A stretch of 64,000 nucleotides of DNA from Naegleria gruberi (GCA_000004985.1 GG738932.1), one strand, 5' to 3'. Shown: positions 3,001 to 64,000, numbered from the stretch's first letter. The notes: generated from the letters alone by a model not told the origin. A program made the numbers and translations.

Positions 3001-6000
3001 NNNNNNNNNNNNNNNNNNNNNNNNNNNNNNNNNNNNNNNNNNNNNNNNNNNNNNNNNNNNNNNNNNNNNNNNNNNNNNNNNNNNNNNNNNNNNNNNNNNN
3101 NNNNNNNNNNNNNNNNNNNNNNNNNNNNNNNNNNNNNNNNNNNNNNNNNNNNNNNNNNNNNNNNNNNNNNNNNNNNNNNNNNNNNNNNNNNNNNNNNNNN
3201 NNNNNNNNNNNNNNNNNNNNNNNNNNNNNNNNNNNNNNNNNNNNNNNNNNNNNNNNNNNNNNNNNNNNNNNNNNNNNNNNNNNNNNNNNNNNNNNNNNNN
3301 NNNNNNNNNNNNNNNNNNNNNNNNNNNNNNNNNNNNNNNNNNNNNNNNNNNNNNNNNNNNNNNNNNNNNNNNNNNNNNNNNNNNNNNNNNNNNNNNNNNN
3401 NNNNNNNNNNNNNNNNNNNNNNNNNNNNNNNNNNNNNNNNNNNNNNNNNNNNNNNNNNNNNNNNNNNNNNNNNNNNNNNNNNNNNNNNNNNNNNNNNNNN
3501 NNNNNNNNNNNNNNNNNNNNNNNNNNNNNNNNNNNNNNNNNNNNNNNNNNNNNNNNNNNNNNNNNNNNNNNNNNNNNNNNNNNNNNNNNNNNNNNNNNNN
3601 NNNNNNNNNNNNNNNNNNNNNNNNNNNNNNNNNNNNNNNNNNNNNNNNNNNNNNNNNNNNNNNNNNNNNNNNNNNNNNNNNNNNNNNNNNNNNNNNNNNN
3701 NNNNNNNNNNNNNNNNNNNNNNNNNNNNNNNNNNNNNNNNNNNNNNNNNNNNNNNNNNNNNNNNNNNNNNNNNNNNNNNNNNNNNNNNNNNNNNNNNNNN
3801 NNNNNNNNNNNNNNNNNNNNNNNNNNNNNNNNNNNNNNNNNNNNNNNNNNNNNNNNNNNNNNNNNNNNNNNNNNNNNNNNNNNNNNNNNNNNNNNNNNNN
3901 NNNNNNNNNNNNNNNNNNNNNNNNNNNNNNNNNNNNNNNNNNNNNNNNNNNNNNNNNNNNNNNNNNNNNNNNNNNNNNNNNNNNNNNNNNNNNNNNNNNN
4001 NNNNNNNNNNNNNNNNNNNNNNNNNNNNNNNNNNNNNNNNNNNNNNNNNNNNNNNNNNNNNNNNNNNNNNNNNNNNNNNNNNNNNNNNNNNNNNNNNNNN
4101 NNNNNNNNNNNNNNNNNNNNNNNNNNNNNNNNNNNNNNNNNNNNNNNNNNNNNNNNNNNNNNNNNNNNNNNNNNNNNNNNNNNNNNNNNNNNNNNNNNNN
4201 NNNNNNNNNNNNNNNNNNNNNNNNNNNNNNNNNNNNNNNNNNNNNNNNNNNNNNNNNNNNNNNNNNNNNNNNNNNNNNNNNNNNNNNNNNNNNNNNNNNN
4301 NNNNNNNNNNNNNNNNNNNNNNNNNNNNNNNNNNNNNNNNNNNNNNNNNNNNNNNNNNNNNNNNNNNNNNNNNNNNNNNNNNNNNNNNNNNNNNNNNNNN
4401 NNNNNNNNNNNNNNNNNNNNNNNNNNNNNNNNNNNNNNNNNNNNNNNNNNNNNNNNNNNNNNNNNNNNNNNNNNNNNNNNNNNNNNNNNNNNNNNNNNNN
4501 NNNNNNNNNNNNNNNNNNNNNNNNNNNNNNNNNNNNNNNNNNNNNNNNNNNNNNNNNNNNNNNNNNNNNNNNNNNNNNNNNNNNNNNNNNNNNNNNNNNN
4601 NNNNNNNNNNNNNNNNNNNNNNNNNNNNNNNNNNNNNNNNNNNNNNNNNNNNNNNNNNNNNNNNNNNNNNNNNNNNNNNNNNNNNNNNNNNNNNNNNNNN
4701 NNNNNNNNNNNNNNNNNNNNNNNNNNNNNNNNNNNNNNNNNNNNNNNNNNNNNNNNNNNNNNNNNNNNNNNNNNNNNNNNNNNNNNNNNNNNNNNNNNNN
4801 NNNNNNNNNNNNNNNNNNNNNNNNNNNNNNNNNNNNNNNNNNNNNNNNNNNNNNNNNNNNNNNNNNNNNNNNNNNNNNNNNNNNNNNNNNNNNNNNNNNN
4901 NNNNNNNNNNNNNNNNNNNNNNNNNNNNNNNNNNNNNNNNNNNNNNNNNNNNNNNNNNNNNNNNNNNNNNNNNNNNNNNNNNNNNNNNNNNNNNNNNNNN
5001 NNNNNNNNNNNNNNNNNNNNNNNNNNNNNNNNNNNNNNNNNNNNNNNNNNNNNNNNNNNNNNNNNNNNNNNNNNNNNNNNNNNNNNNNNNNNNNNNNNNN
5101 NNNNNNNNNNNNNNNNNNNNNNNNNNNNNNNNNNNNNNNNNNNNNNNNNNNNNNNNNNNNNNNNNNNNNNNNNNNNNNNNNNNNNNNNNNNNNNNNNNNN
5201 NNNNNNNNNNNNNNNNNNNNNNNNNNNNNNNNNNNNNNNNNNNNNNNNNNNNNNNNNNNNNNNNNNNNNNNNNNNNNNNNNNNNNNNNNNNNNNNNNNNN
5301 NNNNNNNNNNNNNNNNNNNNNNNNNNNNNNNNNNNNNNNNNNNNNNNNNNNNNNNNNNNNNNNNNNNNNNNNNNNNNNNNNNNNNNNNNNNNNNNNNNNN
5401 NNNNNNNNNNNNNNNNNNNNNNNNNNNNNNNNNNNNNNNNNNNNNNNNNNNNNNNNNNNNNNNNNNNNNNNNNNNNNNNNNNNNNNNNNNNNNNNNNNNN
5501 NNNNNNNNNNNNNNNNNNNNNNNNNNNNNNNNNNNNNNNNNNNNNNNNNNNNNNNNNNNNNNNNNNNNNNNNNNNNNNNNNNNNNNNNNNNNNNNNNNNN
5601 NNNNNNNNNNNNNNNNNNNNNNNNNNNNNNNNNNNNNNNNNNNNNNNNNNNNNNNNNNNNNNNNNNNNNNNNNNNNNNNNNNNNNNNNNNNNNNNNNNNN
5701 NNNNNNNNNNNNNNNNNNNNNNNNNNNNNNNNNNNNNNNNNNNNNNNNNNNNNNNNNNNNNNNNNNNNNNNNNNNNNNNNNNNNNNNNNNNNNNNNNNNN
5801 NNNNNNNNNNNNNNNNNNNNNNNNNNNNNNNNNNNNNNNNNNNNNNNNNNNNNNNNNNNNNNNNNNNNNNNNNNNNNNNNNNNNNNNNNNNNNNNNNNNN
5901 NNNNNNNNNNNNNNNNNNNNNNNNNNNNNNNNNNNNNNNNNNNNNNNNNNNNNNNNNNNNNNNNNNNNNNNNNNNNNNNNNNNNNNNNNNNNNNNNNNNN

Positions 6001-9000
6001 NNNNNNNNNNNNNNNNNNNNNNNNNNNNNNNNNNNNNNNNNNNNNNNNNNNNNNNNNNNNNNNNNNNNNNNNNNNNNNNNNNNNNNNNNNNNNNNNNNNN
6101 NNNNNNNNNNNNNNNNNNNNNNNNNNNNNNNNNNNNNNNNNNNNNNNNNNNNNNNNNNNNNNNNNNNNNNNNNNNNNNNNNNNNNNNNNNNNNNNNNNNN
6201 NNNNNNNNNNNNNNNNNNNNNNNNNNNNNNNNNNNNNNNNNNNNNNNNNNNNNNNNNNNNNNNNNNNNNNNNNNNNNNNNNNNNNNNNNNNNNNNNNNNN
6301 NNNNNNNNNNNNNNNNNNNNNNNNNNNNNNNNNNNNNNNNNNNNNNNNNNNNNNNNNNNNNNNNNNNNNNNNNNNNNNNNNNNNNNNNNNNNNNNNNNNN
6401 NNNNNNNNNNNNNNNNNNNNNNNNNNNNNNNNNNNNNNNNNNNNNNNNNNNNNNNNNNNNNNNNNNNNNNNNNNNNNNNNNNNNNNNNNNNNNNNNNNNN
6501 NNNNNNNNNNNNNNNNNNNNNNNNNNNNNNNNNNNNNNNNNNNNNNNNNNNNNNNNNNNNNNNNNNNNNNNNNNNNNNNNNNNNNNNNNNNNNNNNNNNN
6601 NNNNNNNNNNNNNNNNNNNNNNNNNNNNNNNNNNNNNNNNNNNNNNNNNNNNNNNNNNNNNNNNNNNNNNNNNNNNNNNNNNNNNNNNNNNNNNNNNNNN
6701 NNNNNNNNNNNNNNNNNNNNNNNNNNNNNNNNNNNNNNNNNNNNNNNNNNNNNNNNNNNNNNNNNNNNNNNNNNNNNNNNNNNNNNNNNNNNNNNNNNNN
6801 NNNNNNNNNNNNNNNNNNNNNNNNNNNNNNNNNNNNNNNNNNNNNNNNNNNNNNNNNNNNNNNNNNNNNNNNNNNNNNNNNNNNNNNNNNNNNNNNNNNN
6901 NNNNNNNNNNNNNNNNNNNNNNNNNNNNNNNNNNNNNNNNNNNNNNNNNNNNNNNNNNNNNNNNNNNNNNNNNNNNNNNNNNNNNNNNNNNNNNNNNNNN
7001 NNNNNNNNNNNNNNNNNNNNNNNNNNNNNNNNNNNNNNNNNNNNNNNNNNNNNNNNNNNNNNNNNNNNNNNNNNNNNNNNNNNNNNNNNNNNNNNNNNNN
7101 NNNNNNNNNNNNNNNNNNNNNNNNNNNNNNNNNNNNNNNNNNNNNNNNNNNNNNNNNNNNNNNNNNNNNNNNNNNNNNNNNNNNNNNNNNNNNNNNNNNN
7201 NNNNNNNNNNNNNNNNNNNNNNNNNNNNNNNNNNNNNNNNNNNNNNNNNNNNNNNNNNNNNNNNNNNNNNNNNNNNNNNNNNNNNNNNNNNNNNNNNNNN
7301 NNNNNNNNNNNNNNNNNNNNNNNNNNNNNNNNNNNNNNNNNNNNNNNNNNNNNNNNNNNNNNNNNNNNNNNNNNNNNNNNNNNNNNNNNNNNNNNNNNNN
7401 NNNNNNNNNNNNNNNNNNNNNNNNNNNNNNNNNNNNNNNNNNNNNNNNNNNNNNNNNNNNNNNNNNNNNNNNNNNNNNNNNNNNNNNNNNNNNNNNNNNN
7501 NNNNNNNNNNNNNNNNNNNNNNNNNNNNNNNNNNNNNNNNNNNNNNNNNNNNNNNNNNNNNNNNNNNNNNNNNNNNNNNNNNNNNNNNNNNNNNNNNNNN
7601 NNNNNNNNNNNNNNNNNNNNNNNNNNNNNNNNNNNNNNNNNNNNNNNNNNNNNNNNNNNNNNNNNNNNNNNNNNNNNNNNNNNNNNNNNNNNNNNNNNNN
7701 NNNNNNNNNNNNNNNNNNNNNNNNNNNNNNNNNNNNNNNNNNNNNNNNNNNNNNNNNNNNNNNNNNNNNNNNNNNNNNNNNNNNNNNNNNNNNNNNNNNN
7801 NNNNNNNNNNNNNNNNNNNNNNNNNNNNNNNNNNNNNNNNNNNNNNNNNNNNNNNNNNNNNNNNNNNNNNNNNNNNNNNNNNNNNNNNNNNNNNNNNNNN
7901 NNNNNNNNNNNNNNNNNNNNNNNNNNNNNNNNNNNNNNNNNNNNNNNNNNNNNNNNNNNNNNNNNNNNNNNNNNNNNNNNNNNNNNNNNNNNNNNNNNNN
8001 NNNNNNNNNNNNNNNNNNNNNNNNNNNNNNNNNNNNNNNNNNNNNNNNNNNNNNNNNNNNNNNNNNNNNNNNNNNNNNNNNNNNNNNNNNNNNNNNNNNN
8101 NNNNNNNNNNNNNNNNNNNNNNNNNNNNNNNNNNNNNNNNNNNNNNNNNNNNNNNNNNNNNNNNNNNNNNNNNNNNNNNNNNNNNNNNNNNNNNNNNNNN
8201 NNNNNNNNNNNNNNNNNNNNNNNNNNNNNNNNNNNNNNNNNNNNNNNNNNNNNNNNNNNNNNNNNNNNNNNNNNNNNNNNNNNNNNNNNNNNNNNNNNNN
8301 NNNNNNNNNNNNNNNNNNNNNNNNNNNNNNNNNNNNNNNNNNNNNNNNNNNNNNNNNNNNNNNNNNNNNNNNNNNNNNNNNNNNNNNNNNNNNNNNNNNN
8401 NNNNNNNNNNNNNNNNNNNNNNNNNNNNNNNNNNNNNNNNNNNNNNNNNNNNNNNNNNNNNNNNNNNNNNNNNNNNNNNNNNNNNNNNNNNNNNNNNNNN
8501 NNNNNNNNNNNNNNNNNNNNNNNNNNNNNNNNNNNNNNNNNNNNNNNNNNNNNNNNNNNNNNNNNNNNNNNNNNNNNNNNNNNNNNNNNNNNNNNNNNNN
8601 NNNNNNNNNNNNNNNNNNNNNNNNNNNNNNNNNNNNNNNNNNNNNNNNNNNNNNNNNNNNNNNNNNNNNNNNNNNNNNNNNNNNNNNNNNNNNNNNNNNN
8701 NNNNNNNNNNNNNNNNNNNNNNNNNNNNNNNNNNNNNNNNNNNNNNNNNNNNNNNNNNNNNNNNNNNNNNNNNNNNNNNNNNNNNNNNNNNNNNNNNNNN
8801 NNNNNNNNNNNNNNNNNNNNNNNNNNNNNNNNNNNNNNNNNNNNNNNNNNNNNNNNNNNNNNNNNNNNNNNNNNNNNNNNNNNNNNNNNNNNNNNNNNNN
8901 NNNNNNNNNNNNNNNNNNNNNNNNNNNNNNNNNNNNNNNNNNNNNNNNNNNNNNNNNNNNNNNNNNNNNNNNNNNNNNNNNNNNNNNNNNNNNNNNNNNN

Positions 9001-54619: not shown

Positions 54620-55648
54620 CACATTTGGAATGACTTGATATTCGACGTTTTTCTTGGCAGAGTCCAAAATAGTTGCCAAAGAACACTTGCTATTCACAGT
54701 AACTATTTGTTTGATATTGTGGGACAAGCTGTTGTAAACAATGATAGAATGTTGATCATCATTGGTAACATCCAAACTATCTGATAAGACACTATTACTA
54801 TCAATTTCCAAAACGTGTTGAGTGAGTGATTTGTGAAGGGACTTCATATCTTGAATGACTGAAGCAAGTTGGGACATGTAATCATTATAAACATGTCTTC
54901 TACAAGTACCAGTAATGGCATCGTGGTGTTGTACCAACCCAACAGTTTGTCTAGATCTTTGAATAGTATTAAATGTGTCTACCCAGTTGAACATGCTATT
55001 TTGGTGAGTCATCTTTACTCTTGCAAGAGCATACAACATTTCAGTTGATGTGAGCGCTGATTCAGCAGTTCTGGCAGACTTTTTAAGGTTTGGTAAGGAG
55101 GTAAAGTAACCAGTCCAATAACTATCTGGGTAGTCAGCATATGGTACAAAGTCTTGTTTAACGACTGGGAACTTGGTACTGCTACCGTAGTTTTTGAATA
55201 ATTCATTAAAGTATTCAGTAGTGGTGGCATATTGAACCTTAACTCCTAGATCATGATTATCCAAAAACTGAATAACTCTATCCATATTTGAAAATTGGGC
55301 TCCGGCATCTCTGAATTTAAAGTCGTCGCCCATTGGAACAAGAATGTATGGTGTTCTGTATGCTGAAGATCTCTTCCTCATGTCTTCAATAAATTCGTGA
55401 GCTTTTCTTTCCACATTTTGATCATTGATAAATTCCGCACCTGGTTTTTCAAAATCAAAATTTCTAGGACTAGAATAGTGAGTATGAAGTACTTCAGTGA
55501 AGATGGTATTGTTTGAGCTGATGTTCCAAATAAATTCCAATGCCTTTTCGTCCTTCATTACAGATTTGATGGAAAAGTGAACTCTGTTAATTACGAGAGC
55601 ATCAAATCCCATTTGACTGAATATTTGTGGAATTTTTCCGTCATGACC
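54620..55648 (-). CDS. Lysosomal-type alpha-mannosidase (glycoside hydrolase family 38), downstream exon; 3' end truncated by the N gap
   Basis: Minus-strand frame is open for exactly 343 codons from 55648 down to the gap edge at 54620. The translation GHDGKIPQIFSQMGFDALVINRVHF...MGDDFKF...QDFVPYADYPDSYWTGYFTSLPNLKK...VQHHDAITGTCRRHVYNDYMSQLA...IIVYNSL aligns block by block with human lysosomal alpha-mannosidase as recalled from memory ([25 protein letters not shown] / MGSDFQY / [26 protein letters not shown] / [24 protein letters not shown] / VIVYNPL). It is absent from the ORF track only because it runs off into the N run without a stop. Confidence 0.85.
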
Positions 55649-55697
55649 CTTAATTCATCATCATATATTAATCTTTCCTCGAGATGTGAAAACTTAC
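55649..55697 (-). other. Spliceosomal intron (49 nt, phase 0) of the mannosidase gene
   Basis: On the minus strand, GTAAGT follows directly after ...AWQIDPF, and the intron ends ...AATTAAG before GGTCATGAC. Splicing joins IDPF|GHDG, restoring the conserved GH38 'DPFGH' block. Left unspliced, the frame stops after VSFHISRKD*. Confidence 0.8.
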
Positions 55698-56004
55698 AAA
55701 AGGATCAATTTGCCAAGCAACTCTCGGTCTCACTCCAAATCTTCTCAAAAGATATTCATGACCTACAGTCATTGAGTTAATGATTGAAGTGTATGATGCA
55801 CAAGCTTCATCTGTTTGAATCCAACCTCCTCCGACAAATTCGAATCTATTTGTTTTAATTAGCTTTTTCACTTGTTGTTGTCTTGGTGCTGGTTGTTGTT
55901 CGAACCACTCCTTAAAGTAGAGAACATCACCCCACACATATCTTGTATGTGGTTTTTCCCAATAATTGACCAATAACACTGTCCAAAATGAGAAGGTTCT
56001 GATG
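55698..56004 (-). CDS. Lysosomal-type alpha-mannosidase (GH38), upstream exon; 5' end lost in the 50-N gap
   Basis: Translation ...KPHTRYVWGDVLYFKEWFEQQPAPRQQQVKKLIKTNRFEFVGGGWIQTDEACASYTSIINSMTVGHEYLLRRFGVRPRVAWQIDPF matches the GH38 N-terminal catalytic region (human: [20 protein letters not shown]...[54 protein letters not shown]). The frame continues into the N run. Confidence 0.85.
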
Positions 56005-56054
56005 NNNNNNNNNNNNNNNNNNNNNNNNNNNNNNNNNNNNNNNNNNNNNNNNNN
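56005..56054. other. 50-N placeholder gap (true size unknown)
   Basis: Exactly 50 n. The mannosidase N-terminus (signal peptide plus ~70-100 aa) is missing and is not encoded in 56055-56207, so the real gap must be larger than 50 bp. Confidence 0.7.
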
Positions 56055-56099
56055 AATCAATTCTTCATTACTATCAATATTGTACAAAACCCTAATTAA

Positions 56100-56106
56100 T
56101 ATAAAT
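56100..56106 (+). promoter_or_regulatory. TATAAAT motif about 100 bp upstream of the A20-finger gene ATG; possible TATA box
   Basis: tataaat lies in an AT-rich intergenic stretch. It is followed by A-tracts (aaaaaaaacag...aaaaaaaaaactcttaaaaATG). The call rests on position only. Confidence 0.3.
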
Positions 56107-56207
56107 TTAATCTTGATCTCAATGATGTTTACAATGAACAACAAGCATTCCATTTCAAAATTGAAAAAAAACAGAAAACATAAACTTTAAAAAAAAAACT
56201 CTTAAAA

Positions 56208-56693
56208 ATGTCCCTCTGCAAAGACAATTGTGGTTTCTACGGCAATGACAATTACGAAGGTTATTGTTCAACATGCTATCGAAAGAGAAATGCAAAACCA
56301 GGTGATGATCAATCATCGTTATCGGTAATTAATTCTACTCCAGTTTATACTCCACCAATGCCATCTTTCTCCTCCGATGAGGAATTGGCTGTTTTTATCA
56401 AATTGATCAGTAATATGCCAGAGATAACTTCTGGAAAGATTGATAATGTGTTGCAGACTTTGAATGTTTATTTCACTGAGAAGCAGGCAAGAGAATTGTT
56501 GACTGCTATTGGAAAGGTCACCTTGGATGGAAATAATTTCATTTATCATCATGCTGTGTATTGTAGAGTGGTGGATCGTTATAATTTACAAGAATGTTTT
56601 GGAGCTGAAGGATATTATTATGTTGCACGAGGAAAGAAACCTCAAGATGATTACAAAGTATGGGATCATCAACATTCATTCTTGAAACATTAA
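56208..56693 (+). CDS. A20-type zinc-finger protein (161 aa) with a possible CUE-like ubiquitin-binding segment; single exon
   Basis: The N-terminus MSLCKDNCGFYGNDNYEGYCSTCYRK fits the A20 finger pattern C-x3-C-G-F-Y-G-x7-C-S-x-C. Residues ~58-100 (EELAVFIKLISNMPEITSGKIDNVLQTLNVYFTEKQARELL) resemble a CUE/UBA-like helical module, with an M-P motif and a terminal LL. The start codon sits in an A-rich context (ttaaaaATGtc) and the stop is TAA. No AN1 finger is present. Confidence 0.8.
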   Translation: MSLCKDNCGFYGNDNYEGYCSTCYRKRNAKPGDDQSSLSVINSTPVYTPPMPSFSSDEELAVFIKLISNMPEITSGKIDNVLQTLNVYFTEKQARELLTAIGKVTLDGNNFIYHHAVYCRVVDRYNLQECFGAEGYYYVARGKKPQDDYKVWDHQHSFLKH

Positions 56694-56735
56694 ATTTCAT
56701 TACAATTTTTCATATTGAAATTATTCTATTATGAA

Positions 56736-56741
56736 ATTAAA
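56736..56741 (+). terminator. ATTAAA polyadenylation-signal variant, 43 nt after the A20-finger gene stop
   Basis: The hexamer attaaa lies in the short 3'-3' spacer between the A20 gene and the convergent membrane-protein gene. Confidence 0.35.
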
Positions 56742-56756
56742 CAAAATATTGAACAT

Positions 56757-57589
56757 TTACTTAGTTTTAATACCGGCATTATCTTGGTGGAACATTGGCA
56801 AGACACTAGGTCTGTCCTTTCTACCTCTTCTTCTCACCATCAAAGTGAGAGAAAGACAGCAGAATCCACAAACAGCAAGCAAGAGGGCAACAATAACAAA
56901 CACCCAGAATGGAACCTTTTCTCTTGGTGGTTTAGGAACTTGAGCAGCAGGAATCTTCCTGGTTTCGATTGGTTTTTCTTCCTTCTTTTCCTCAATAATA
57001 TTAATCTTTTTATCTTCTTCTTCGGCAGTTCTAATTTCTTCTTCAGCAGTTTCCTCAACAGTTTCGTCATCTTCCAATCCCAAATCATTAATTTCCTTAT
57101 TGTTGGTATCTTCATCAACAGTGTCCTTTTTAGAGATTGGAACAAAACCTTTTCCACTAAAAGTCATTGCAGCAAAGTAAGATTTGATAGATGTTGCAGG
57201 AAGGGTAATGGTGTATGGTGAAATACCACCAATGGCCAATAATTTTCTACCACCAGCATTCTTTTCCATTTCAGCAATAGCTTCATCAGAAAGGAAGACC
57301 CCTTCTTGATCGGTGTTTTGGCCTCCTTCGCCTTTGAGTTTAACTTCTTTAGTAAAATCAAATCTCATTACTGCATCCTTCTTGAATCTCAACTTTCTCT
57401 TTTCCTCACTGACTTCATAAATGAGATTGAGAGAACGTTCTCTAAGATCAGAAACTTCAATACCCTCAGAGAAGAGAGTACTAAAATCAATTGTTAATGG
57501 CTTAGATGGATGTAAATTTTGTAATCTAATAGCAACTTCATCAGAAGAAATACCTCTAGCCTGCAAGGAGATGATTTGAGCTGTGGATG
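56757..57589 (-). CDS. C-terminal ~277 aa of a large type I membrane protein (acidic juxtamembrane region, one TM helix, short basic cytoplasmic tail); 5' part lost in the N gap
   Basis: The minus frame is open from the gap edge to a TAA stop (plus 56757-59). The translation ends ...DEDTNNKEINDLGLEDDETVEETAEEEIRTAEEEDKKINIIEEKKEEKPIETRKIPAAQVPKPPREKVPFWVFVIVALLLAVCGFCCLSLTLMVRRRGRKDRPSVLPMFHQDNAGIKTK*. That is a ~23-residue hydrophobic helix followed by an RRRGRK stop-transfer signal, which gives a type I topology. No family could be assigned from memory. The 1585-aa ORF in the track is an artefact of translating 3.75 kb of N. Confidence 0.7.
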
Positions 57590-60500
57590 NNNNNNNNNNN
57601 NNNNNNNNNNNNNNNNNNNNNNNNNNNNNNNNNNNNNNNNNNNNNNNNNNNNNNNNNNNNNNNNNNNNNNNNNNNNNNNNNNNNNNNNNNNNNNNNNNNN
57701 NNNNNNNNNNNNNNNNNNNNNNNNNNNNNNNNNNNNNNNNNNNNNNNNNNNNNNNNNNNNNNNNNNNNNNNNNNNNNNNNNNNNNNNNNNNNNNNNNNNN
57801 NNNNNNNNNNNNNNNNNNNNNNNNNNNNNNNNNNNNNNNNNNNNNNNNNNNNNNNNNNNNNNNNNNNNNNNNNNNNNNNNNNNNNNNNNNNNNNNNNNNN
57901 NNNNNNNNNNNNNNNNNNNNNNNNNNNNNNNNNNNNNNNNNNNNNNNNNNNNNNNNNNNNNNNNNNNNNNNNNNNNNNNNNNNNNNNNNNNNNNNNNNNN
58001 NNNNNNNNNNNNNNNNNNNNNNNNNNNNNNNNNNNNNNNNNNNNNNNNNNNNNNNNNNNNNNNNNNNNNNNNNNNNNNNNNNNNNNNNNNNNNNNNNNNN
58101 NNNNNNNNNNNNNNNNNNNNNNNNNNNNNNNNNNNNNNNNNNNNNNNNNNNNNNNNNNNNNNNNNNNNNNNNNNNNNNNNNNNNNNNNNNNNNNNNNNNN
58201 NNNNNNNNNNNNNNNNNNNNNNNNNNNNNNNNNNNNNNNNNNNNNNNNNNNNNNNNNNNNNNNNNNNNNNNNNNNNNNNNNNNNNNNNNNNNNNNNNNNN
58301 NNNNNNNNNNNNNNNNNNNNNNNNNNNNNNNNNNNNNNNNNNNNNNNNNNNNNNNNNNNNNNNNNNNNNNNNNNNNNNNNNNNNNNNNNNNNNNNNNNNN
58401 NNNNNNNNNNNNNNNNNNNNNNNNNNNNNNNNNNNNNNNNNNNNNNNNNNNNNNNNNNNNNNNNNNNNNNNNNNNNNNNNNNNNNNNNNNNNNNNNNNNN
58501 NNNNNNNNNNNNNNNNNNNNNNNNNNNNNNNNNNNNNNNNNNNNNNNNNNNNNNNNNNNNNNNNNNNNNNNNNNNNNNNNNNNNNNNNNNNNNNNNNNNN
58601 NNNNNNNNNNNNNNNNNNNNNNNNNNNNNNNNNNNNNNNNNNNNNNNNNNNNNNNNNNNNNNNNNNNNNNNNNNNNNNNNNNNNNNNNNNNNNNNNNNNN
58701 NNNNNNNNNNNNNNNNNNNNNNNNNNNNNNNNNNNNNNNNNNNNNNNNNNNNNNNNNNNNNNNNNNNNNNNNNNNNNNNNNNNNNNNNNNNNNNNNNNNN
58801 NNNNNNNNNNNNNNNNNNNNNNNNNNNNNNNNNNNNNNNNNNNNNNNNNNNNNNNNNNNNNNNNNNNNNNNNNNNNNNNNNNNNNNNNNNNNNNNNNNNN
58901 NNNNNNNNNNNNNNNNNNNNNNNNNNNNNNNNNNNNNNNNNNNNNNNNNNNNNNNNNNNNNNNNNNNNNNNNNNNNNNNNNNNNNNNNNNNNNNNNNNNN
59001 NNNNNNNNNNNNNNNNNNNNNNNNNNNNNNNNNNNNNNNNNNNNNNNNNNNNNNNNNNNNNNNNNNNNNNNNNNNNNNNNNNNNNNNNNNNNNNNNNNNN
59101 NNNNNNNNNNNNNNNNNNNNNNNNNNNNNNNNNNNNNNNNNNNNNNNNNNNNNNNNNNNNNNNNNNNNNNNNNNNNNNNNNNNNNNNNNNNNNNNNNNNN
59201 NNNNNNNNNNNNNNNNNNNNNNNNNNNNNNNNNNNNNNNNNNNNNNNNNNNNNNNNNNNNNNNNNNNNNNNNNNNNNNNNNNNNNNNNNNNNNNNNNNNN
59301 NNNNNNNNNNNNNNNNNNNNNNNNNNNNNNNNNNNNNNNNNNNNNNNNNNNNNNNNNNNNNNNNNNNNNNNNNNNNNNNNNNNNNNNNNNNNNNNNNNNN
59401 NNNNNNNNNNNNNNNNNNNNNNNNNNNNNNNNNNNNNNNNNNNNNNNNNNNNNNNNNNNNNNNNNNNNNNNNNNNNNNNNNNNNNNNNNNNNNNNNNNNN
59501 NNNNNNNNNNNNNNNNNNNNNNNNNNNNNNNNNNNNNNNNNNNNNNNNNNNNNNNNNNNNNNNNNNNNNNNNNNNNNNNNNNNNNNNNNNNNNNNNNNNN
59601 NNNNNNNNNNNNNNNNNNNNNNNNNNNNNNNNNNNNNNNNNNNNNNNNNNNNNNNNNNNNNNNNNNNNNNNNNNNNNNNNNNNNNNNNNNNNNNNNNNNN
59701 NNNNNNNNNNNNNNNNNNNNNNNNNNNNNNNNNNNNNNNNNNNNNNNNNNNNNNNNNNNNNNNNNNNNNNNNNNNNNNNNNNNNNNNNNNNNNNNNNNNN
59801 NNNNNNNNNNNNNNNNNNNNNNNNNNNNNNNNNNNNNNNNNNNNNNNNNNNNNNNNNNNNNNNNNNNNNNNNNNNNNNNNNNNNNNNNNNNNNNNNNNNN
59901 NNNNNNNNNNNNNNNNNNNNNNNNNNNNNNNNNNNNNNNNNNNNNNNNNNNNNNNNNNNNNNNNNNNNNNNNNNNNNNNNNNNNNNNNNNNNNNNNNNNN
60001 NNNNNNNNNNNNNNNNNNNNNNNNNNNNNNNNNNNNNNNNNNNNNNNNNNNNNNNNNNNNNNNNNNNNNNNNNNNNNNNNNNNNNNNNNNNNNNNNNNNN
60101 NNNNNNNNNNNNNNNNNNNNNNNNNNNNNNNNNNNNNNNNNNNNNNNNNNNNNNNNNNNNNNNNNNNNNNNNNNNNNNNNNNNNNNNNNNNNNNNNNNNN
60201 NNNNNNNNNNNNNNNNNNNNNNNNNNNNNNNNNNNNNNNNNNNNNNNNNNNNNNNNNNNNNNNNNNNNNNNNNNNNNNNNNNNNNNNNNNNNNNNNNNNN
60301 NNNNNNNNNNNNNNNNNNNNNNNNNNNNNNNNNNNNNNNNNNNNNNNNNNNNNNNNNNNNNNNNNNNNNNNNNNNNNNNNNNNNNNNNNNNNNNNNNNNN
60401 NNNNNNNNNNNNNNNNNNNNNNNNNNNNNNNNNNNNNNNNNNNNNNNNNNNNNNNNNNNNNNNNNNNNNNNNNNNNNNNNNNNNNNNNNNNNNNNNNNNN

Positions 60501-61340
60501 NNNNNNNNNNNNNNNNNNNNNNNNNNNNNNNNNNNNNNNNNNNNNNNNNNNNNNNNNNNNNNNNNNNNNNNNNNNNNNNNNNNNNNNNNNNNNNNNNNNN
60601 NNNNNNNNNNNNNNNNNNNNNNNNNNNNNNNNNNNNNNNNNNNNNNNNNNNNNNNNNNNNNNNNNNNNNNNNNNNNNNNNNNNNNNNNNNNNNNNNNNNN
60701 NNNNNNNNNNNNNNNNNNNNNNNNNNNNNNNNNNNNNNNNNNNNNNNNNNNNNNNNNNNNNNNNNNNNNNNNNNNNNNNNNNNNNNNNNNNNNNNNNNNN
60801 NNNNNNNNNNNNNNNNNNNNNNNNNNNNNNNNNNNNNNNNNNNNNNNNNNNNNNNNNNNNNNNNNNNNNNNNNNNNNNNNNNNNNNNNNNNNNNNNNNNN
60901 NNNNNNNNNNNNNNNNNNNNNNNNNNNNNNNNNNNNNNNNNNNNNNNNNNNNNNNNNNNNNNNNNNNNNNNNNNNNNNNNNNNNNNNNNNNNNNNNNNNN
61001 NNNNNNNNNNNNNNNNNNNNNNNNNNNNNNNNNNNNNNNNNNNNNNNNNNNNNNNNNNNNNNNNNNNNNNNNNNNNNNNNNNNNNNNNNNNNNNNNNNNN
61101 NNNNNNNNNNNNNNNNNNNNNNNNNNNNNNNNNNNNNNNNNNNNNNNNNNNNNNNNNNNNNNNNNNNNNNNNNNNNNNNNNNNNNNNNNNNNNNNNNNNN
61201 NNNNNNNNNNNNNNNNNNNNNNNNNNNNNNNNNNNNNNNNNNNNNNNNNNNNNNNNNNNNNNNNNNNNNNNNNNNNNNNNNNNNNNNNNNNNNNNNNNNN
61301 NNNNNNNNNNNNNNNNNNNNNNNNNNNNNNNNNNNNNNNN
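57590..61340. other. N run / assembly gap (3751 nt)
   Basis: Uninterrupted n. All ORFs reported across it (1264, 1259, 1286, 1260 and 1585 aa) are poly-X artefacts. Confidence 0.99.
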
Positions 61341-61562
61341 ATTTTTCCATTTTAGAATATTTACAGTAATAGAAACCTCAGGCAGACATTCTCGTTTGCA
61401 ATATTTTAGTGTGTTTCGTTTTCTTCCCAAGAGAGATCCGTAGATATCAGAGATAAACAGACGGGGTGAGTTCACCTTTCGAATAAAAACACATTTTCTT
61501 CCTCCCCTCACCATCTTTCAACTCAAAAAAAAATCAAAGCTCTCATTTCTTCCTTATTCTCA

Positions 61563-61866
61563 ATGAAATCCCATTGTTTATTCCTAGCTCTGCTTTCCTT
61601 CTCATTGAGCGTACTTCTCGTTCAATGCCAAGAAATGGGCACTGTGCCTGTCACTCAAGAATTTACAGATGCCATCGATTCTGGAATGCAAGATGTCATT
61701 ACTGACACTTCCTTTAGTTTTCAATACTACAAACTCATGCTGTTCAACGTTCCTGCCATTGAAATTTGCACCACACGAGCTAAATACCCAACTAAGAATC
61801 CATTTATTGGAAGAACTCAACTCAACATGTGCATTGAATTGGGAACTATTTATCCACATTATGAAG
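61563..61866 (+). CDS. Exon 1 of a secreted SBP_bac_3-like (periplasmic solute-binding protein family 3 / GlnH-like) GPI-anchored protein; signal peptide plus start of domain
   Basis: ATG in an A-rich context (ttctcaATGaaa). MKSHCLFLALLSFSLSVLLVQCQ is a typical cleavable signal peptide. The exon ends in phase 1 at a GTAAGT donor. Unspliced, the frame stops 5 codons later. Confidence 0.7.
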
Positions 61867-61888
61867 GTAAGTTGATTTTCTAGTTGAG
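61867..61888 (+). other. Intron 1 of the SBP-like gene (22 nt, gtaagttgattttctagttgag, phase 1)
   Basis: A GTAAGT donor at 61867 and an AG at 61887-88 are the only combination that joins exon 1 to the downstream open frame in phase. Splicing gives ...YPHYE-V-VEFNWEIVKHLVSKML, which aligns with GlnH ...KYVGFDVDLWAAIAKELKL. The intron is unusually short, so this boundary is the least certain. Confidence 0.5.
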
Positions 61889-62140
61889 TGGTGGAATTTA
61901 ATTGGGAAATAGTCAAGCATTTGGTATCCAAAATGTTGGTTGATAAGATTAATGCCAATTACAAGATTAATTTAAAGGTGGAATATAGATATTTGAATAC
62001 TTCCAAATTGGGATTTTTTGCAACAATGAGACAAGGTGTTGATTCTGGATATTGTGATATGATTTCATCGAATACTACACCAACTGATGAGAGAAAGAAA
62101 GTGTCTCATTTCCAATGTAGTTATGGAACTACAGCTCAAG
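61889..62140 (+). CDS. Exon 2 of the SBP_bac_3-like protein (lobe 1, including the T-x-ERKK signature)
   Basis: Translation VEFNWEIVKHLVSKMLVDKINANYKINLKVEYRYLNTSKLGFFATMRQGVDSGYCDMISSNTTPTDERKKVSHFQCSYGTTAQ. The 'TPTDERKKVSHF' stretch matches the family-3 SBP hallmark (E. coli GlnH 'ITITDERKKAIDFS'). The exon ends at a GTAAGA donor in phase 1. Confidence 0.75.
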
Positions 62141-62224
62141 GTAAGAAATTGATATATTTCTAATGAAAATAACTTTCGTAAATTTTTCTAATGATGTGAA
62201 TACGAAATTATACATGAAAAATAG
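62141..62224 (+). other. Intron 2 of the SBP-like gene (84 nt, GTAAGA...ATAG)
   Basis: Donor aag|gtaaga and acceptor aaaatag| restore the frame in phase 1. The intron is AT-rich and has two TTCTAAT branch-point-like motifs. Confidence 0.7.
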
Positions 62225-62437
62225 GATTCTTGAGATCAGGATTGGAACCTGAACGTAAATTGTCTTCTTTAAATGATTTGAATCAAACTGGAATTATTGT
62301 AGGAGCTTATGCAGGAACAACATACGAAACTTTGGTAAAAACTAAACTCTCTGCAGCCACCTACGTTCCTTTCTATGAAGTAAATAATCAATATCAGTCA
62401 ATTAATGCCAAATCTGTTCATGCCTTAATTGGAGATG
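62225..62437 (+). CDS. Exon 3 of the SBP_bac_3-like protein (lobe 2)
   Basis: Translation (G)FLRSGLEPERKLSSLNDLNQTGIIVGAYAGTTYETLVKTKLSAATYVPFYEVNNQYQSINAKSVHALIGD. This fits the SBP3 pattern G-x-x-V-G-x-x-x-G-T-x-x-E...(hinge)...vdAvi-D. The exon ends at a GTATGT donor in phase 1. Confidence 0.7.
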
Positions 62438-62482
62438 GTATGTTTTTTCAATAATTTTTTAATGATTTTTGACATTTGAAAG
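62438..62482 (+). other. Intron 3 of the SBP-like gene (45 nt, GTATGT...AAAG)
   Basis: Splicing gives ...ALIGD-A-VQYLIWQAANN, aligning with GlnH ...AVLHDTPNILYFIKTAG. Read-through would instead end the protein as ...GDGMFFQ* with no C-terminal anchor signal. Confidence 0.65.
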
Positions 62483-62670
62483 CTGTTCAATACTTAATTT
62501 GGCAAGCAGCCAACAATGCCACCTGTGGAGGATGCTCAGTAAAGATCTACAGCGAACCATATACTTACGGAACTTTTACAACAGGAAACATTACAAAAAG
62601 TTCAGCAAGTTCAATTCAATTTTTATTACAAAATATTCTTCTCATTTCTTTACTTATTCTTTACTTTTAA
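62483..62670 (+). CDS. Exon 4 of the SBP_bac_3-like protein: end of domain plus predicted GPI-attachment signal
   Basis: Translation VQYLIWQAANNATCGGCSVKIYSEPYTYGTFTTGNITKSSASSIQFLLQNILLISLLILYF*. The 'YGTF' stretch corresponds to the conserved YG-x-A/F motif of SBP3. The C-terminus is a small-residue omega region (SSASS), a short spacer and a ~17-residue hydrophobic tail ending at the stop, which is a classic GPI signal. Confidence 0.7.
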
Positions 62671-62674
62671 TAAA
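62669..62674 (+). terminator. AATAAA polyadenylation signal overlapping the SBP-like gene stop codon (TAATAAA)
   Basis: aataaa begins inside the TAA stop. The convergent minus-strand ORF ends only ~40 bp away. Confidence 0.4.
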
Positions 62675-62711
62675 AACAAATACAAATTTCCAATTGTCAA
62701 TTCTTTCAACT

Positions 62712-62975
62712 TTACAATGAATATTTACAAGGAACAGATTTGCAAATTTGTGCTAATTTAGAAAGTATGGTCGAGCAAAAAATTGGCTCCTCATAATAAT
62801 CTTCCAATTGTTCTGCCCATTTGCTTGACTTTTCAGTTTCTCTTTCCAATTTTGACAGTTGACTCAACAATTTCTCATTCAGAAAGACATTTTCAGCAAA
62901 TGTTGGGAACATGACTTTCAATAAGGGAATAAAGGCAGTAATTTGATTATTCGAATCATGATTGAACTTTTTCAA
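62712..62975 (-). CDS. Hypothetical small protein (87 aa); possibly a partial or terminal exon
   Basis: A 264-nt open frame in an AT-rich region: MKKFNHDSNNQITAFIPLLKVMFPTFAENVFLNEKLLSQLSKLERETEKSSKWAEQLEDYYEEPIFCSTILSKLAQICKSVPCKYSL*. A TAA lies in frame 18 codons upstream of the ATG. No recognisable domain. Support is ORF length and codon composition only. Confidence 0.3.
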   Translation of the reverse strand: MKKFNHDSNNQITAFIPLLKVMFPTFAENVFLNEKLLSQLSKLERETEKSSKWAEQLEDYYEEPIFCSTILSKLAQICKSVPCKYSL

Positions 62976-63082
62976 TGAAATTCCAGATGAAAAGTTTAGT
63001 ATTTCGTAATGATGATTAGATGATCTTTATGAGGATTGAAACTAGGATGAGTTTAATGATCAATGGATTGGCGGTTATTCCA

Positions 63083-63110
63083 ATTAATTTAGTGTTTTAA
63101 TTTTTAGTGT
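63083..63110 (+). repeat. Left 28-bp inverted repeat arm
   Basis: Exact reverse complement of 63338-63365. Confidence 0.9.
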
Positions 63111-63298
63111 CCAAATAATCCCACCATTGAGTTTCTTTAAAGTTTGACATTTTTTTTGTTTAACTAAAAGCAACAGCAGACACATTTTCACATTAATGTG
63201 ATTTTAGATCTACTATTATCATATTGTTAATTGTTATTCATCAACATTTCATTTAAAAAAGAAAAGGACGGGAAAATTCTTACAAATTTCAACAATTT

Positions 63299-63304
63299 TT
63301 TATT
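63299..63304 (-). terminator. AATAAA (minus strand) ~90 nt downstream of the Gly/Tyr-rich gene stop, inside the inverted-repeat element
   Basis: Plus-strand tttatt at 63299-63304 reads aataaa on the minus strand. Confidence 0.3.
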
Positions 63305-63337
63305 CACTCTTTCTTCACTCTATATAGAAATATCAAA

Positions 63338-63365
63338 ACACTAAAAATTAAAACACTAAATTAAT
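63338..63365 (-). repeat. Right 28-bp inverted repeat arm (lies 29 nt downstream of the Gly/Tyr-rich gene stop, in its 3' flank/UTR)
   Basis: Exact reverse complement of 63083-63110. Confidence 0.9.
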
Positions 63366-63393
63366 CTAATCTTTGATTGGATCTTTACACCAA

Positions 63394-63849
63394 CTAACAA
63401 CCCAAACCACCATATCCACCATATCCACCATAACCAACACCATAACCAAAACCACCTCCATATCCATAACCACCGCCATATCCACCATAACCACCATAAA
63501 ATGGAACACCTCCATATCCACCATATCCACCATAGCATGGAATTCCTCCTCCGTATCCACCATAGAAAGGCATTGAATAGGCACTTCCATAATTGGTTCC
63601 ATAACTACTTGGTCCAGTATATGAAGATCCATAACTTGAGTATGGACTTGAGTTGACTGCATTCACTTGATTCAAGTAGGATTGAGTATTTTGTCCATAT
63701 TGATTGTAATTTCCTCCAGTGACTCCATAATTAGAACCAGCACCTCCTGATGTACCATAATTAGTACCGTAATTGTTGCTATATTGACAGTTGACCAAGC
63801 AAGTAGCCAAAAGTAAGGTTGCAACTAGAGCAGCGATGAATTTGTTCAT
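63394..63849 (-). CDS. Secreted glycine/tyrosine-rich low-complexity protein (151 aa; GYGG/GYGGYGG repeats); single exon
   Basis: ATG at plus 63847-49 in context aaacaATGaac. MNKFIAALVATLLLATCLVNCQ is a signal peptide. The N-terminal half is N/S/Y/G/T-rich (NYGTNYGTSGG...) and the C-terminal half is (GYGG)n with scattered P, F and C, ending LGC. The stop is TAG. The two overlapping minus-strand ORFs (W-rich, M/V/D-rich) are other frames of the same repeat. Confidence 0.7.
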   Translation of the reverse strand: MNKFIAALVATLLLATCLVNCQYSNNYGTNYGTSGGAGSNYGVTGGNYNQYGQNTQSYLNQVNAVNSSPYSSYGSSYTGPSSYGTNYGSAYSMPFYGGYGGGIPCYGGYGGYGGVPFYGGYGGYGGGYGYGGGFGYGVGYGGYGGYGGLGC

Positions 63850-63910
63850 TGTTTTTGAGTTGTTTTTTTATGTGTGAATTGATTTTGAATGAGGATGTTG
63901 TTCATTGGGT

Positions 63911-63917
63911 ATTTATA
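63911..63917 (-). promoter_or_regulatory. TATAAAT (minus strand) ~62-68 bp upstream of the Gly/Tyr-rich gene ATG; possible TATA box
   Basis: Plus-strand atttata reads tataaat on the minus strand. The call rests on position only. Confidence 0.3.
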
Positions 63918-64000
63918 TGTTTTTTGAAAGATNTGTGTTTTTGCAAACCATNGTGTTTTAACAGTTTGTTTCCAAATGTAAAATGACAAAAAAGGAATGG

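Follow-up and report, generated by a model that had tools for sequence, protein, structure and literature searches.

A candidate MITE with perfect 28-bp terminal inverted repeats between two minus-strand genes of Naegleria gruberi

Introduction

MITEs, or miniature inverted-repeat transposable elements, usually measure tens to a few hundred base pairs, a range into which the 283-bp segment described here falls. Terminal inverted repeats (TIRs) 24-28 bp long have a length that is usual for ends of the mariner type, and elements of the CACTA (En/Spm) type have the termini 5'-CACTA...TAGTG-3'. The hallmarks of hAT elements are an 8-bp target-site duplication, a YARNG terminal motif and targets of the NNTNNANN type, while the TIRs of Tc1/mariner elements vary widely in sequence (PMC3014272). 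The termini of piggyBac elements are CC[C/T]T, with TIRs of 12-19 bp (PMC2872659). Kolobok elements, which have been reported in Naegleria, duplicate TTAA and have termini of the form 5'-RR...YY-3' (PMC9587614). For the Emigrant MITE, binding of the transposase to the TIR and to subterminal repeats has been documented (PMC1636448).

The N. gruberi genome comprises 40.9 Mb in 1977 contigs and 784 scaffolds, with 35% G+C and 5.1% repeats, and DNA transposons represent 1.25% of the genome of N. lovaniensis (PMC6125883). Classified transposable elements account for only 0.28% of the N. gruberi genome (bioRxiv 10.64898/2026.06.24.734286), and a small fraction of its repeats can be assigned to DNA transposons or retrotransposons (PMC12344493). 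Our literature searches turned up no account of a MITE in Naegleria.

Here we describe a segment of N. gruberi DNA that had been predicted, from the sequence alone, to be MITE-like. We report its repeats and their significance, its position, its possible target-site duplications and its folding, and we weigh the MITE reading against other origins.

Results

The window and its genes

The window is the whole stretch of DNA that was analysed, 64,000 nucleotides from N. gruberi (GCA_000004985.1 GG738932.1). It contains N at 58422 positions (91%), and the real sequence amounts to 5578 nt in three blocks, in agreement with the 5.5 kb given in the original prediction. The gaps near the element region are 50 N and 3751 N long.

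1-54619, N
54620-56004, real sequence
56005-56054, N
56055-57589, real sequence
57590-61340, N
61341-64000, real sequence, with single N calls at 63933 and 63952

The DNA of the window is A+T-rich, gene-dense and eukaryotic, with short spliceosomal introns (~46-85 nt) and standard stop codons. A ciliate-type genetic code was ruled out, as the open reading frames (ORFs) terminate sensibly at TAA or TAG. Pfam hits were obtained for a GH38 alpha-mannosidase, a zf-A20 protein and an SBP_bac_3-like protein whose C-terminus is hydrophobic. This SBP-like protein is 99% identical to a predicted Naegleria gruberi protein, which places the window in the nuclear DNA of that species, and its N. lovaniensis and N. 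fowleri relatives show 46-54% identity.

The two GH38 alpha-mannosidase paralogues are arranged in tandem with the zf-A20 ORF between them, and an assembly gap truncates each paralogue.

54620-56153, minus strand, first GH38 paralogue
56208-56693, plus strand, zf-A20 ORF
56757-57589, minus strand, second GH38 paralogue

At its end the second GH38 fragment has an acidic stretch, then a transmembrane segment and then a basic tail, and by eye its C-terminal region is similar to that of a full-length metagenomic GH38 (L004). The nearest GH38 relatives (47-54% identity) lie on the JGI metagenome contigs L003 and L004, which are eukaryotic, contain introns and have 37-40% G+C. Two convergent gene pairs are only 63 nt (56694-56756) and 41 nt (62671-62711) apart, so their 3' UTRs must be very short or overlapping.

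A perfect inverted repeat far beyond chance

The 28-bp inverted repeat was found where it had been predicted. All 28 of the 28 positions are complementary and 227 nt lie between the arms. The features of the repeat and of the segment that it bounds are listed here.

63083-63365, whole element, 283 bp, 23% G+C
63083-63110, left arm, 28 nt, ATTAATTTAGTGTTTTAATTTTTAGTGT, 100% complementary to 63338-63365
63338-63365, right arm, 28 nt, ACACTAAAAATTAAAACACTAAATTAAT
Arm of the inverted repeat, TAGTGTTTTAATTTTTAGTGT
63111-63337, internal segment, 227 nt, non-coding, 25% G+C

The repeat cannot be extended outwards (63082 is A and 63366 is C). Its inner boundary is equally abrupt at the DNA level, with no Watson-Crick extension over the 40 positions past 28 nt; the Watson-Crick-only score beyond 28 nt is 0, and DNA-level similarity in that region is not significant taken alone.

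Composition-matched sequences of 5578 nt were simulated with a first-order Markov model (n = 300). Among perfect inverted repeats whose arms lay no more than 1 kb apart, the longest in each simulated sequence had a mean length of 12 nt and in no case exceeded 17 nt, and the expected number of perfect 28-mer inverted repeats at such spacing is ~1e-9. The next-longest inverted repeats in the three real blocks measure 9-11 nt, and the arm did not occur twice in any of 100 dinucleotide shuffles. With 28 nt observed against a simulated maximum of 17, the original description of the repeat as far beyond chance stands.

Internal segment, short motifs and neighbouring reading frames

The element has no coding capacity. 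It holds no ORF longer than 37 aa, and the largest (26-37 aa) have non-ATG starts. A tRNA search gave no match in the element, and a search of 61341-64000 with the Rfam 15 covariance models returned only two sub-threshold hits, neither of them inside it. Several short motifs are repeated at or near its ends.

63088-63095 and 63103-63110, plus strand, direct pair of TTTAGTGT in the left arm, 15 nt apart
63338-63345 and 63353-63360, other strand, mirrored copies of TTTAGTGT in the right arm
63303-63310 and 63314-63321, two copies of TTCACTCT in the right subterminal region
63188-63201, 14-bp perfect palindrome TCACATTAATGTGA, which includes the hexamer ATTAAT, as do the element termini

There are five exact matches to TTTAGTGT in the window, where 0.29 would be expected, and 4 of the 5 lie inside the arms. 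On this distribution we regard the TTTAGTGT pairs as candidate transposase-binding motifs. The fifth match (61405-61412) lies upstream of the SBP-like gene, at a distance of 158 nt; a single extra match agrees with an expectation of 0.29, and its alignment score is at background level. The palindrome TCACATTAATGTGA was considered as a sign of nested ends and rejected, as about one such 14-bp palindrome is expected by chance per 5.5 kb.

The element lies between two ORFs that are both on the minus strand.

63394-63849, minus strand, upstream neighbour, Gly/Tyr-rich ORF of 151 aa, stop codon at 63394-63396
62712-62975, minus strand, downstream neighbour, small ORF of 66 aa counted from the first in-frame ATG

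The right arm lies 29 nt past the stop codon of the Gly/Tyr-rich ORF, as predicted. On the other side, 108 nt separate the element from the upper end of the small ORF, with the element on its upstream side. The spacer between the two ORFs is 419 bp long and is mostly filled by the element; it would measure ~136-150 bp without it.

The N-terminus encoded by the Gly/Tyr-rich ORF resembles a signal peptide, and the ORF carries GGY repeats, rich in Gly and Tyr, with a 9-nt periodicity; several other frames are open over the repeats too. Neither this ORF nor the small ORF matched a Pfam family. Since no matching N. gruberi protein was found for the Gly/Tyr-rich ORF in a collection of 5.8 billion proteins, it is apparently unannotated and its transcript hypothetical. 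Its sole homologue (P0020, 58% identity) is encoded on a Logan contig with bacterial-looking gene calls (a 2098-aa A2M/MG2-domain protein and a glycosyltransferase).

Possible target-site duplications

The outermost six bases of the repeat form the palindrome ATTAAT. The TTAA that the original prediction placed at both ends is present, inside this palindrome, and it is not independent evidence for a duplication: any palindrome within an inverted repeat shows up at both ends, so the pair adds little. Because the terminal sequence is palindromic, a duplication is inseparable from the repeat itself. Four registers can be read, in which the element is 269-279 bp long.

TA (Tc1/mariner-like), 63085-63086 at the left terminus and 63362-63363 at the right; two further outer bases must pair by chance
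TAA (PIF/Harbinger-like), 63085-63087 and 63362-63364; the ends are offset by 1 nt
TTAA, 63084-63087 and 63361-63364; one further base must pair by chance, the TIR is 23 bp, and the element starts with TTTAGTG and has TT...AA ends
8 bp, AATTAATT at 63082-63089 and AATTAATC at 63359-63366; the element extends from 63090 to 63358 (269 bp) with 21-bp TIRs and the termini TAGTG...CACTA

The two 8-bp sequences are identical at 7 of 8 positions, AATTAAT(T/C), and are palindromic, hence not independent of the repeat. In this register, which was picked post hoc, the hAT YARNG motif is present at both ends (TAGTG at 63090-63094, CACTA at 63354-63358). Since the rough likelihoods of the four registers lie within one order of magnitude, no superfamily was assigned.

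A search for a non-palindromic direct repeat flanking the arms found none. The hexamer GATTGG, found on each side of the element (at 63066-63071, 11 nt ahead of the left arm, and at 63375-63380, 9 nt past the right arm), was considered as a duplication and rejected; the stretches that separate it from the arms have no inverted similarity, and its presence on both sides is probably due to chance.

Search for further copies and transposase genes

Smith-Waterman alignment of both strands revealed no second copy, full or partial, in the remaining 5.3 kb of real sequence (scores of 12-16, at background level). A stretch upstream of the Gly/Tyr-rich ORF (63953-63977) matches the left arm region at 20 of 25 positions, also with a background-level score. 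The 23-nt arm core was scanned against the TARA metagenome, IMG/VR viral and prokaryotic genome collections. One TARA and one IMG/VR contig were recovered, both with single arms, unrelated flanks and a bacterial or phage coding context, and these were attributed to chance; the prokaryotic genomes gave no match. A full-text literature search for the arm sequence returned unrelated 12-mer coincidences only.

No transposase was found in the window with Pfam, and no hAT transposase was seen in the Naegleria sequence examined. Two N. lovaniensis loci with SBP paralogues (42 kb) were examined for an orthologous empty site; they lack synteny with the window, and no sequence resembling the arm was found in them at 5 mismatches or fewer. 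One of the N. lovaniensis contigs (L005, PYSW02000035.1) carries two transposition-related genes, which adjoin two SBP_bac_3 paralogues.

4391-5470, OrfB_IS605/Cas12f-like TNB (TnpB/Fanzor-like) ORF
6504-7824, DDE_Tnp_4 (Harbinger-type) gene
6099-6119 and 7956-7976, inverted repeat of 21 nt and 86% identity that brackets the DDE_Tnp_4 gene, with no obvious TWA duplication

The repeats flanking the DDE_Tnp_4 gene were compared with the element as those of a possible relative and are unrelated to it. The DDE_Tnp_4 and TnpB-like genes show that cut-and-paste machinery exists in the genus.

Folding and polyadenylation signals

When the element was folded as DNA, both the minimum-free-energy structure and the centroid retained the 28-bp stem. 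When it was folded as RNA, the minus strand (sense for both neighbouring ORFs) reached -77.7 kcal/mol (z = -8.5) and the plus strand -53.6 kcal/mol (z = -5.9). For the internal 227 nt taken alone, z was -2.3 (minus strand) and -0.3 (plus strand). The difference in fold energy between the strands arises because the stem continues inwards on the minus strand.

63111-63124 with 63324-63337, minus strand, RNA only, inner stem extension in which 12 of 14 positions pair (6 Watson-Crick, 6 G·U)

At the six G·U positions the plus strand has A·C or C·A mismatches instead. Of 20000 shuffles, 106 (0.5%) reached as good an extension on one strand or the other, a comparison made post hoc. The G·U extension is a modest signal that could reflect the imperfect subterminal palindromy of a transposon family, chance, or a constraint at the RNA level, and we do not take it as evidence of function; as a strand-specific feature it hints, weakly, at more than an ordinary MITE.

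The only minus-strand AATAAA between the two ORFs (62976-63393) is located at 63299-63304 and thus inside the element, as had been noted. The further proposal that the insertion supplied the polyadenylation signal of the Gly/Tyr-rich gene found no support, as AATAAA occurs within 60 nt of the stop codon at only 1 of 4 other gene ends. That one end belongs to the SBP gene, where AATAAA overlaps the stop codon; the 63-nt spacer shared by the ends of the zf-A20 and GH38 genes lacks it. A TGTAAA is present 4 nt past the Gly/Tyr-rich stop codon, upstream of the element. Nothing in these data shows that this organism depends on AATAAA.

Discussion

The evidence leads us to favour, by a modest degree of confidence, the reading of the segment as a single copy of a non-autonomous cut-and-paste DNA transposon (MITE) inserted between two minus-strand genes, with one copy known. 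The original MITE-like designation holds for every structural hallmark that a single copy can display (TIRs, size, non-coding and A+T-rich sequence, proximity to genes and end motifs), a textbook combination for a MITE; the target-site duplication is ambiguous. We infer that the segment was mobile along the following lines. A transposase encoded elsewhere in the genome would bind both TTTAGTGT motifs in each 21-28-bp TIR, pair the ends and excise the element, which would then reinsert into a short palindrome rich in A+T, whose duplication would now be hidden in the outer ATTAAT of the repeat. The abrupt end of the repeat at the DNA level fits termini that are kept intact for recognition by a transposase, and an A+T-palindromic outer end is as expected where a palindromic target duplication abuts the TIR. 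Taking the element out would leave a spacer of ~136-150 bp, which agrees with the very short distances between convergent genes in this window (41 and 63 nt).

Several observations count against the MITE reading. One copy was seen, and there was no second one in the remaining 5.3 kb of the window or in the 42 kb of N. lovaniensis sequence. N. gruberi is poor in transposons (5.1% repeats, 0.28% classified transposable elements). A stem extension that exists only through G·U pairs on the transcribed strand is not predicted for an element acting purely at the DNA level. Against the TTAA register chosen in the original prediction in particular, the termini fail to match either of the two superfamilies known to generate TTAA.

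An assembly or cloning artefact was considered since the draft is rich in gaps here, with a window that is 91% N, gaps of 50 N and 3751 N close by, isolated N calls (63933 and 63952), and two GH38 paralogues in the region that can confuse assembly. We find this explanation barely credible. The element lies within a gap-free block of 2660 nt with the nearest N 568 nt away, and while an assembler can invert the spacer between repeats, it does not invent the repeats. To our knowledge the arms match no sequencing adaptor or linker, and the structure, at 283 bp, is shorter than one read of the Sanger shotgun from which the JGI N. gruberi assembly was made. The main rival to the MITE is an origin in place, without mobility, in which replication template switching, or else an inverted duplication of short length, placed the reverse complement of ~28 nt at a site ~230 nt away, or in which either process homogenised an older imperfect repeat. 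Template switching makes perfect inverted repeats and turns near-perfect ones perfect (PMC5453318), and it can create and maintain RNA hairpins (PMC8794818). An imperfect, transition-rich continuation past 28 nt would fit partial homogenisation, though that similarity is not significant at the DNA level, where the Watson-Crick-only score is 0. The single known copy and the transposon-poor host also speak for a local event. However, the events described in PMC5453318 are short-range (fragments of at least 10 bp, with switch points at most 30 bp from the mutation cluster), and a local origin leaves unexplained both the doubled TTTAGTGT of each arm and the A+T-palindromic outer end. We hold a local origin to be unlikely.

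The large hairpin that the original prediction offered as its alternative would be a functional structure in a minus-strand transcript, possibly transposon-derived, with a stem of ~40 bp. The RNA concerned would be either a 3' UTR or read-through product from the Gly/Tyr-rich gene or the 5' leader of the next gene, and the proposed roles are 3'-end formation or termination between packed genes, or service as a substrate for a double-strand-specific RNase or RNAi. The neighbouring ORFs are both on the minus strand, the strand on which the fold is the stronger (z = -8.5 versus -5.9, and -2.3 versus -0.3 for the internal 227 nt), and all six transition differences give G·U pairs on that strand only (0.5% of shuffles). 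On the other side, the p value of ~0.005 is post hoc, the candidate structure matches no Rfam family, and a loop of 227 nt makes a poor processing hairpin. A perfect Watson-Crick stem of 28 bp also exceeds what an RNA usually needs and is typical of transposon ends. A functional hairpin appears quite unlikely. In its most specific form, a strand-specific hairpin of ~40 bp (28 Watson-Crick pairs plus the G·U extension) would insulate the two tandem genes by 3'-end cleavage or termination, or would feed RNAi; this is very unlikely, and if true it would represent a transposon-derived terminator or regulator in a heterolobosean.

If the MITE reading is correct, a mobile element fills most of a 419-bp spacer that houses the 3' end of one gene and the promoter of the next. 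If the element were confirmed as multi-copy, Naegleria would have its first described MITE family, to judge by the literature searched, although the type of element is well known. Its termini would then point to the autonomous mover, whether hAT-like, Tc1/mariner-like, PIF-like or an unusual TTAA type. A confirmed family would be useful for annotation and would not surprise a transposon specialist.

The segment shares with the known MITEs (Stowaway, Tourist, Emigrant, mPing) its short length, perfect TIRs, non-coding and A+T-rich sequence and position next to genes, as well as the repeated short motifs at the ends and the potential to fold into a hairpin. What defines a MITE family is a large number of homogeneous copies with a target-site duplication that can be recognised, whereas here there is one known copy with an ambiguous duplication. 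In the 8-bp register, the likeness to hAT-derived MITEs lies in the termini TAGTG...CACTA and in the flanks AATTAATT and AATTAATC, whose third position is T and whose sixth is A (compare NNTNNANN); the difference is that this register is post hoc and needs a near-palindromic target and one later mutation. A TTAA such as piggyBac and other TTAA MITEs duplicate can be read at both ends, but in that register the segment would begin with TTTAGTG in place of CC[C/T]T and its TIR would be 23 bp rather than 12-19 bp. The same TTAA reading would apply for Kolobok, but the termini would be 5'-TT...AA-3' and not RR...YY. For Tc1/mariner (Stowaway-like) and PIF/Harbinger (Tourist-like) MITEs, the two ends admit a TA or a TAA reading. 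The CACTA (En/Spm) type was rejected, as the motifs occur here in the opposite order, 5'-...TAGTG ... CACTA...-3'. With the inverted repeats produced by template switching, the segment has in common that the repeat is perfect and non-coding, that an imperfect continuation adjoins it, and that it is capable of forming an RNA hairpin (PMC5453318, PMC8794818). It differs from them in its spacer of ~230 nt, compared with the short range of the published screen, and in arms that carry internal direct repeats and A+T-palindromic ends.
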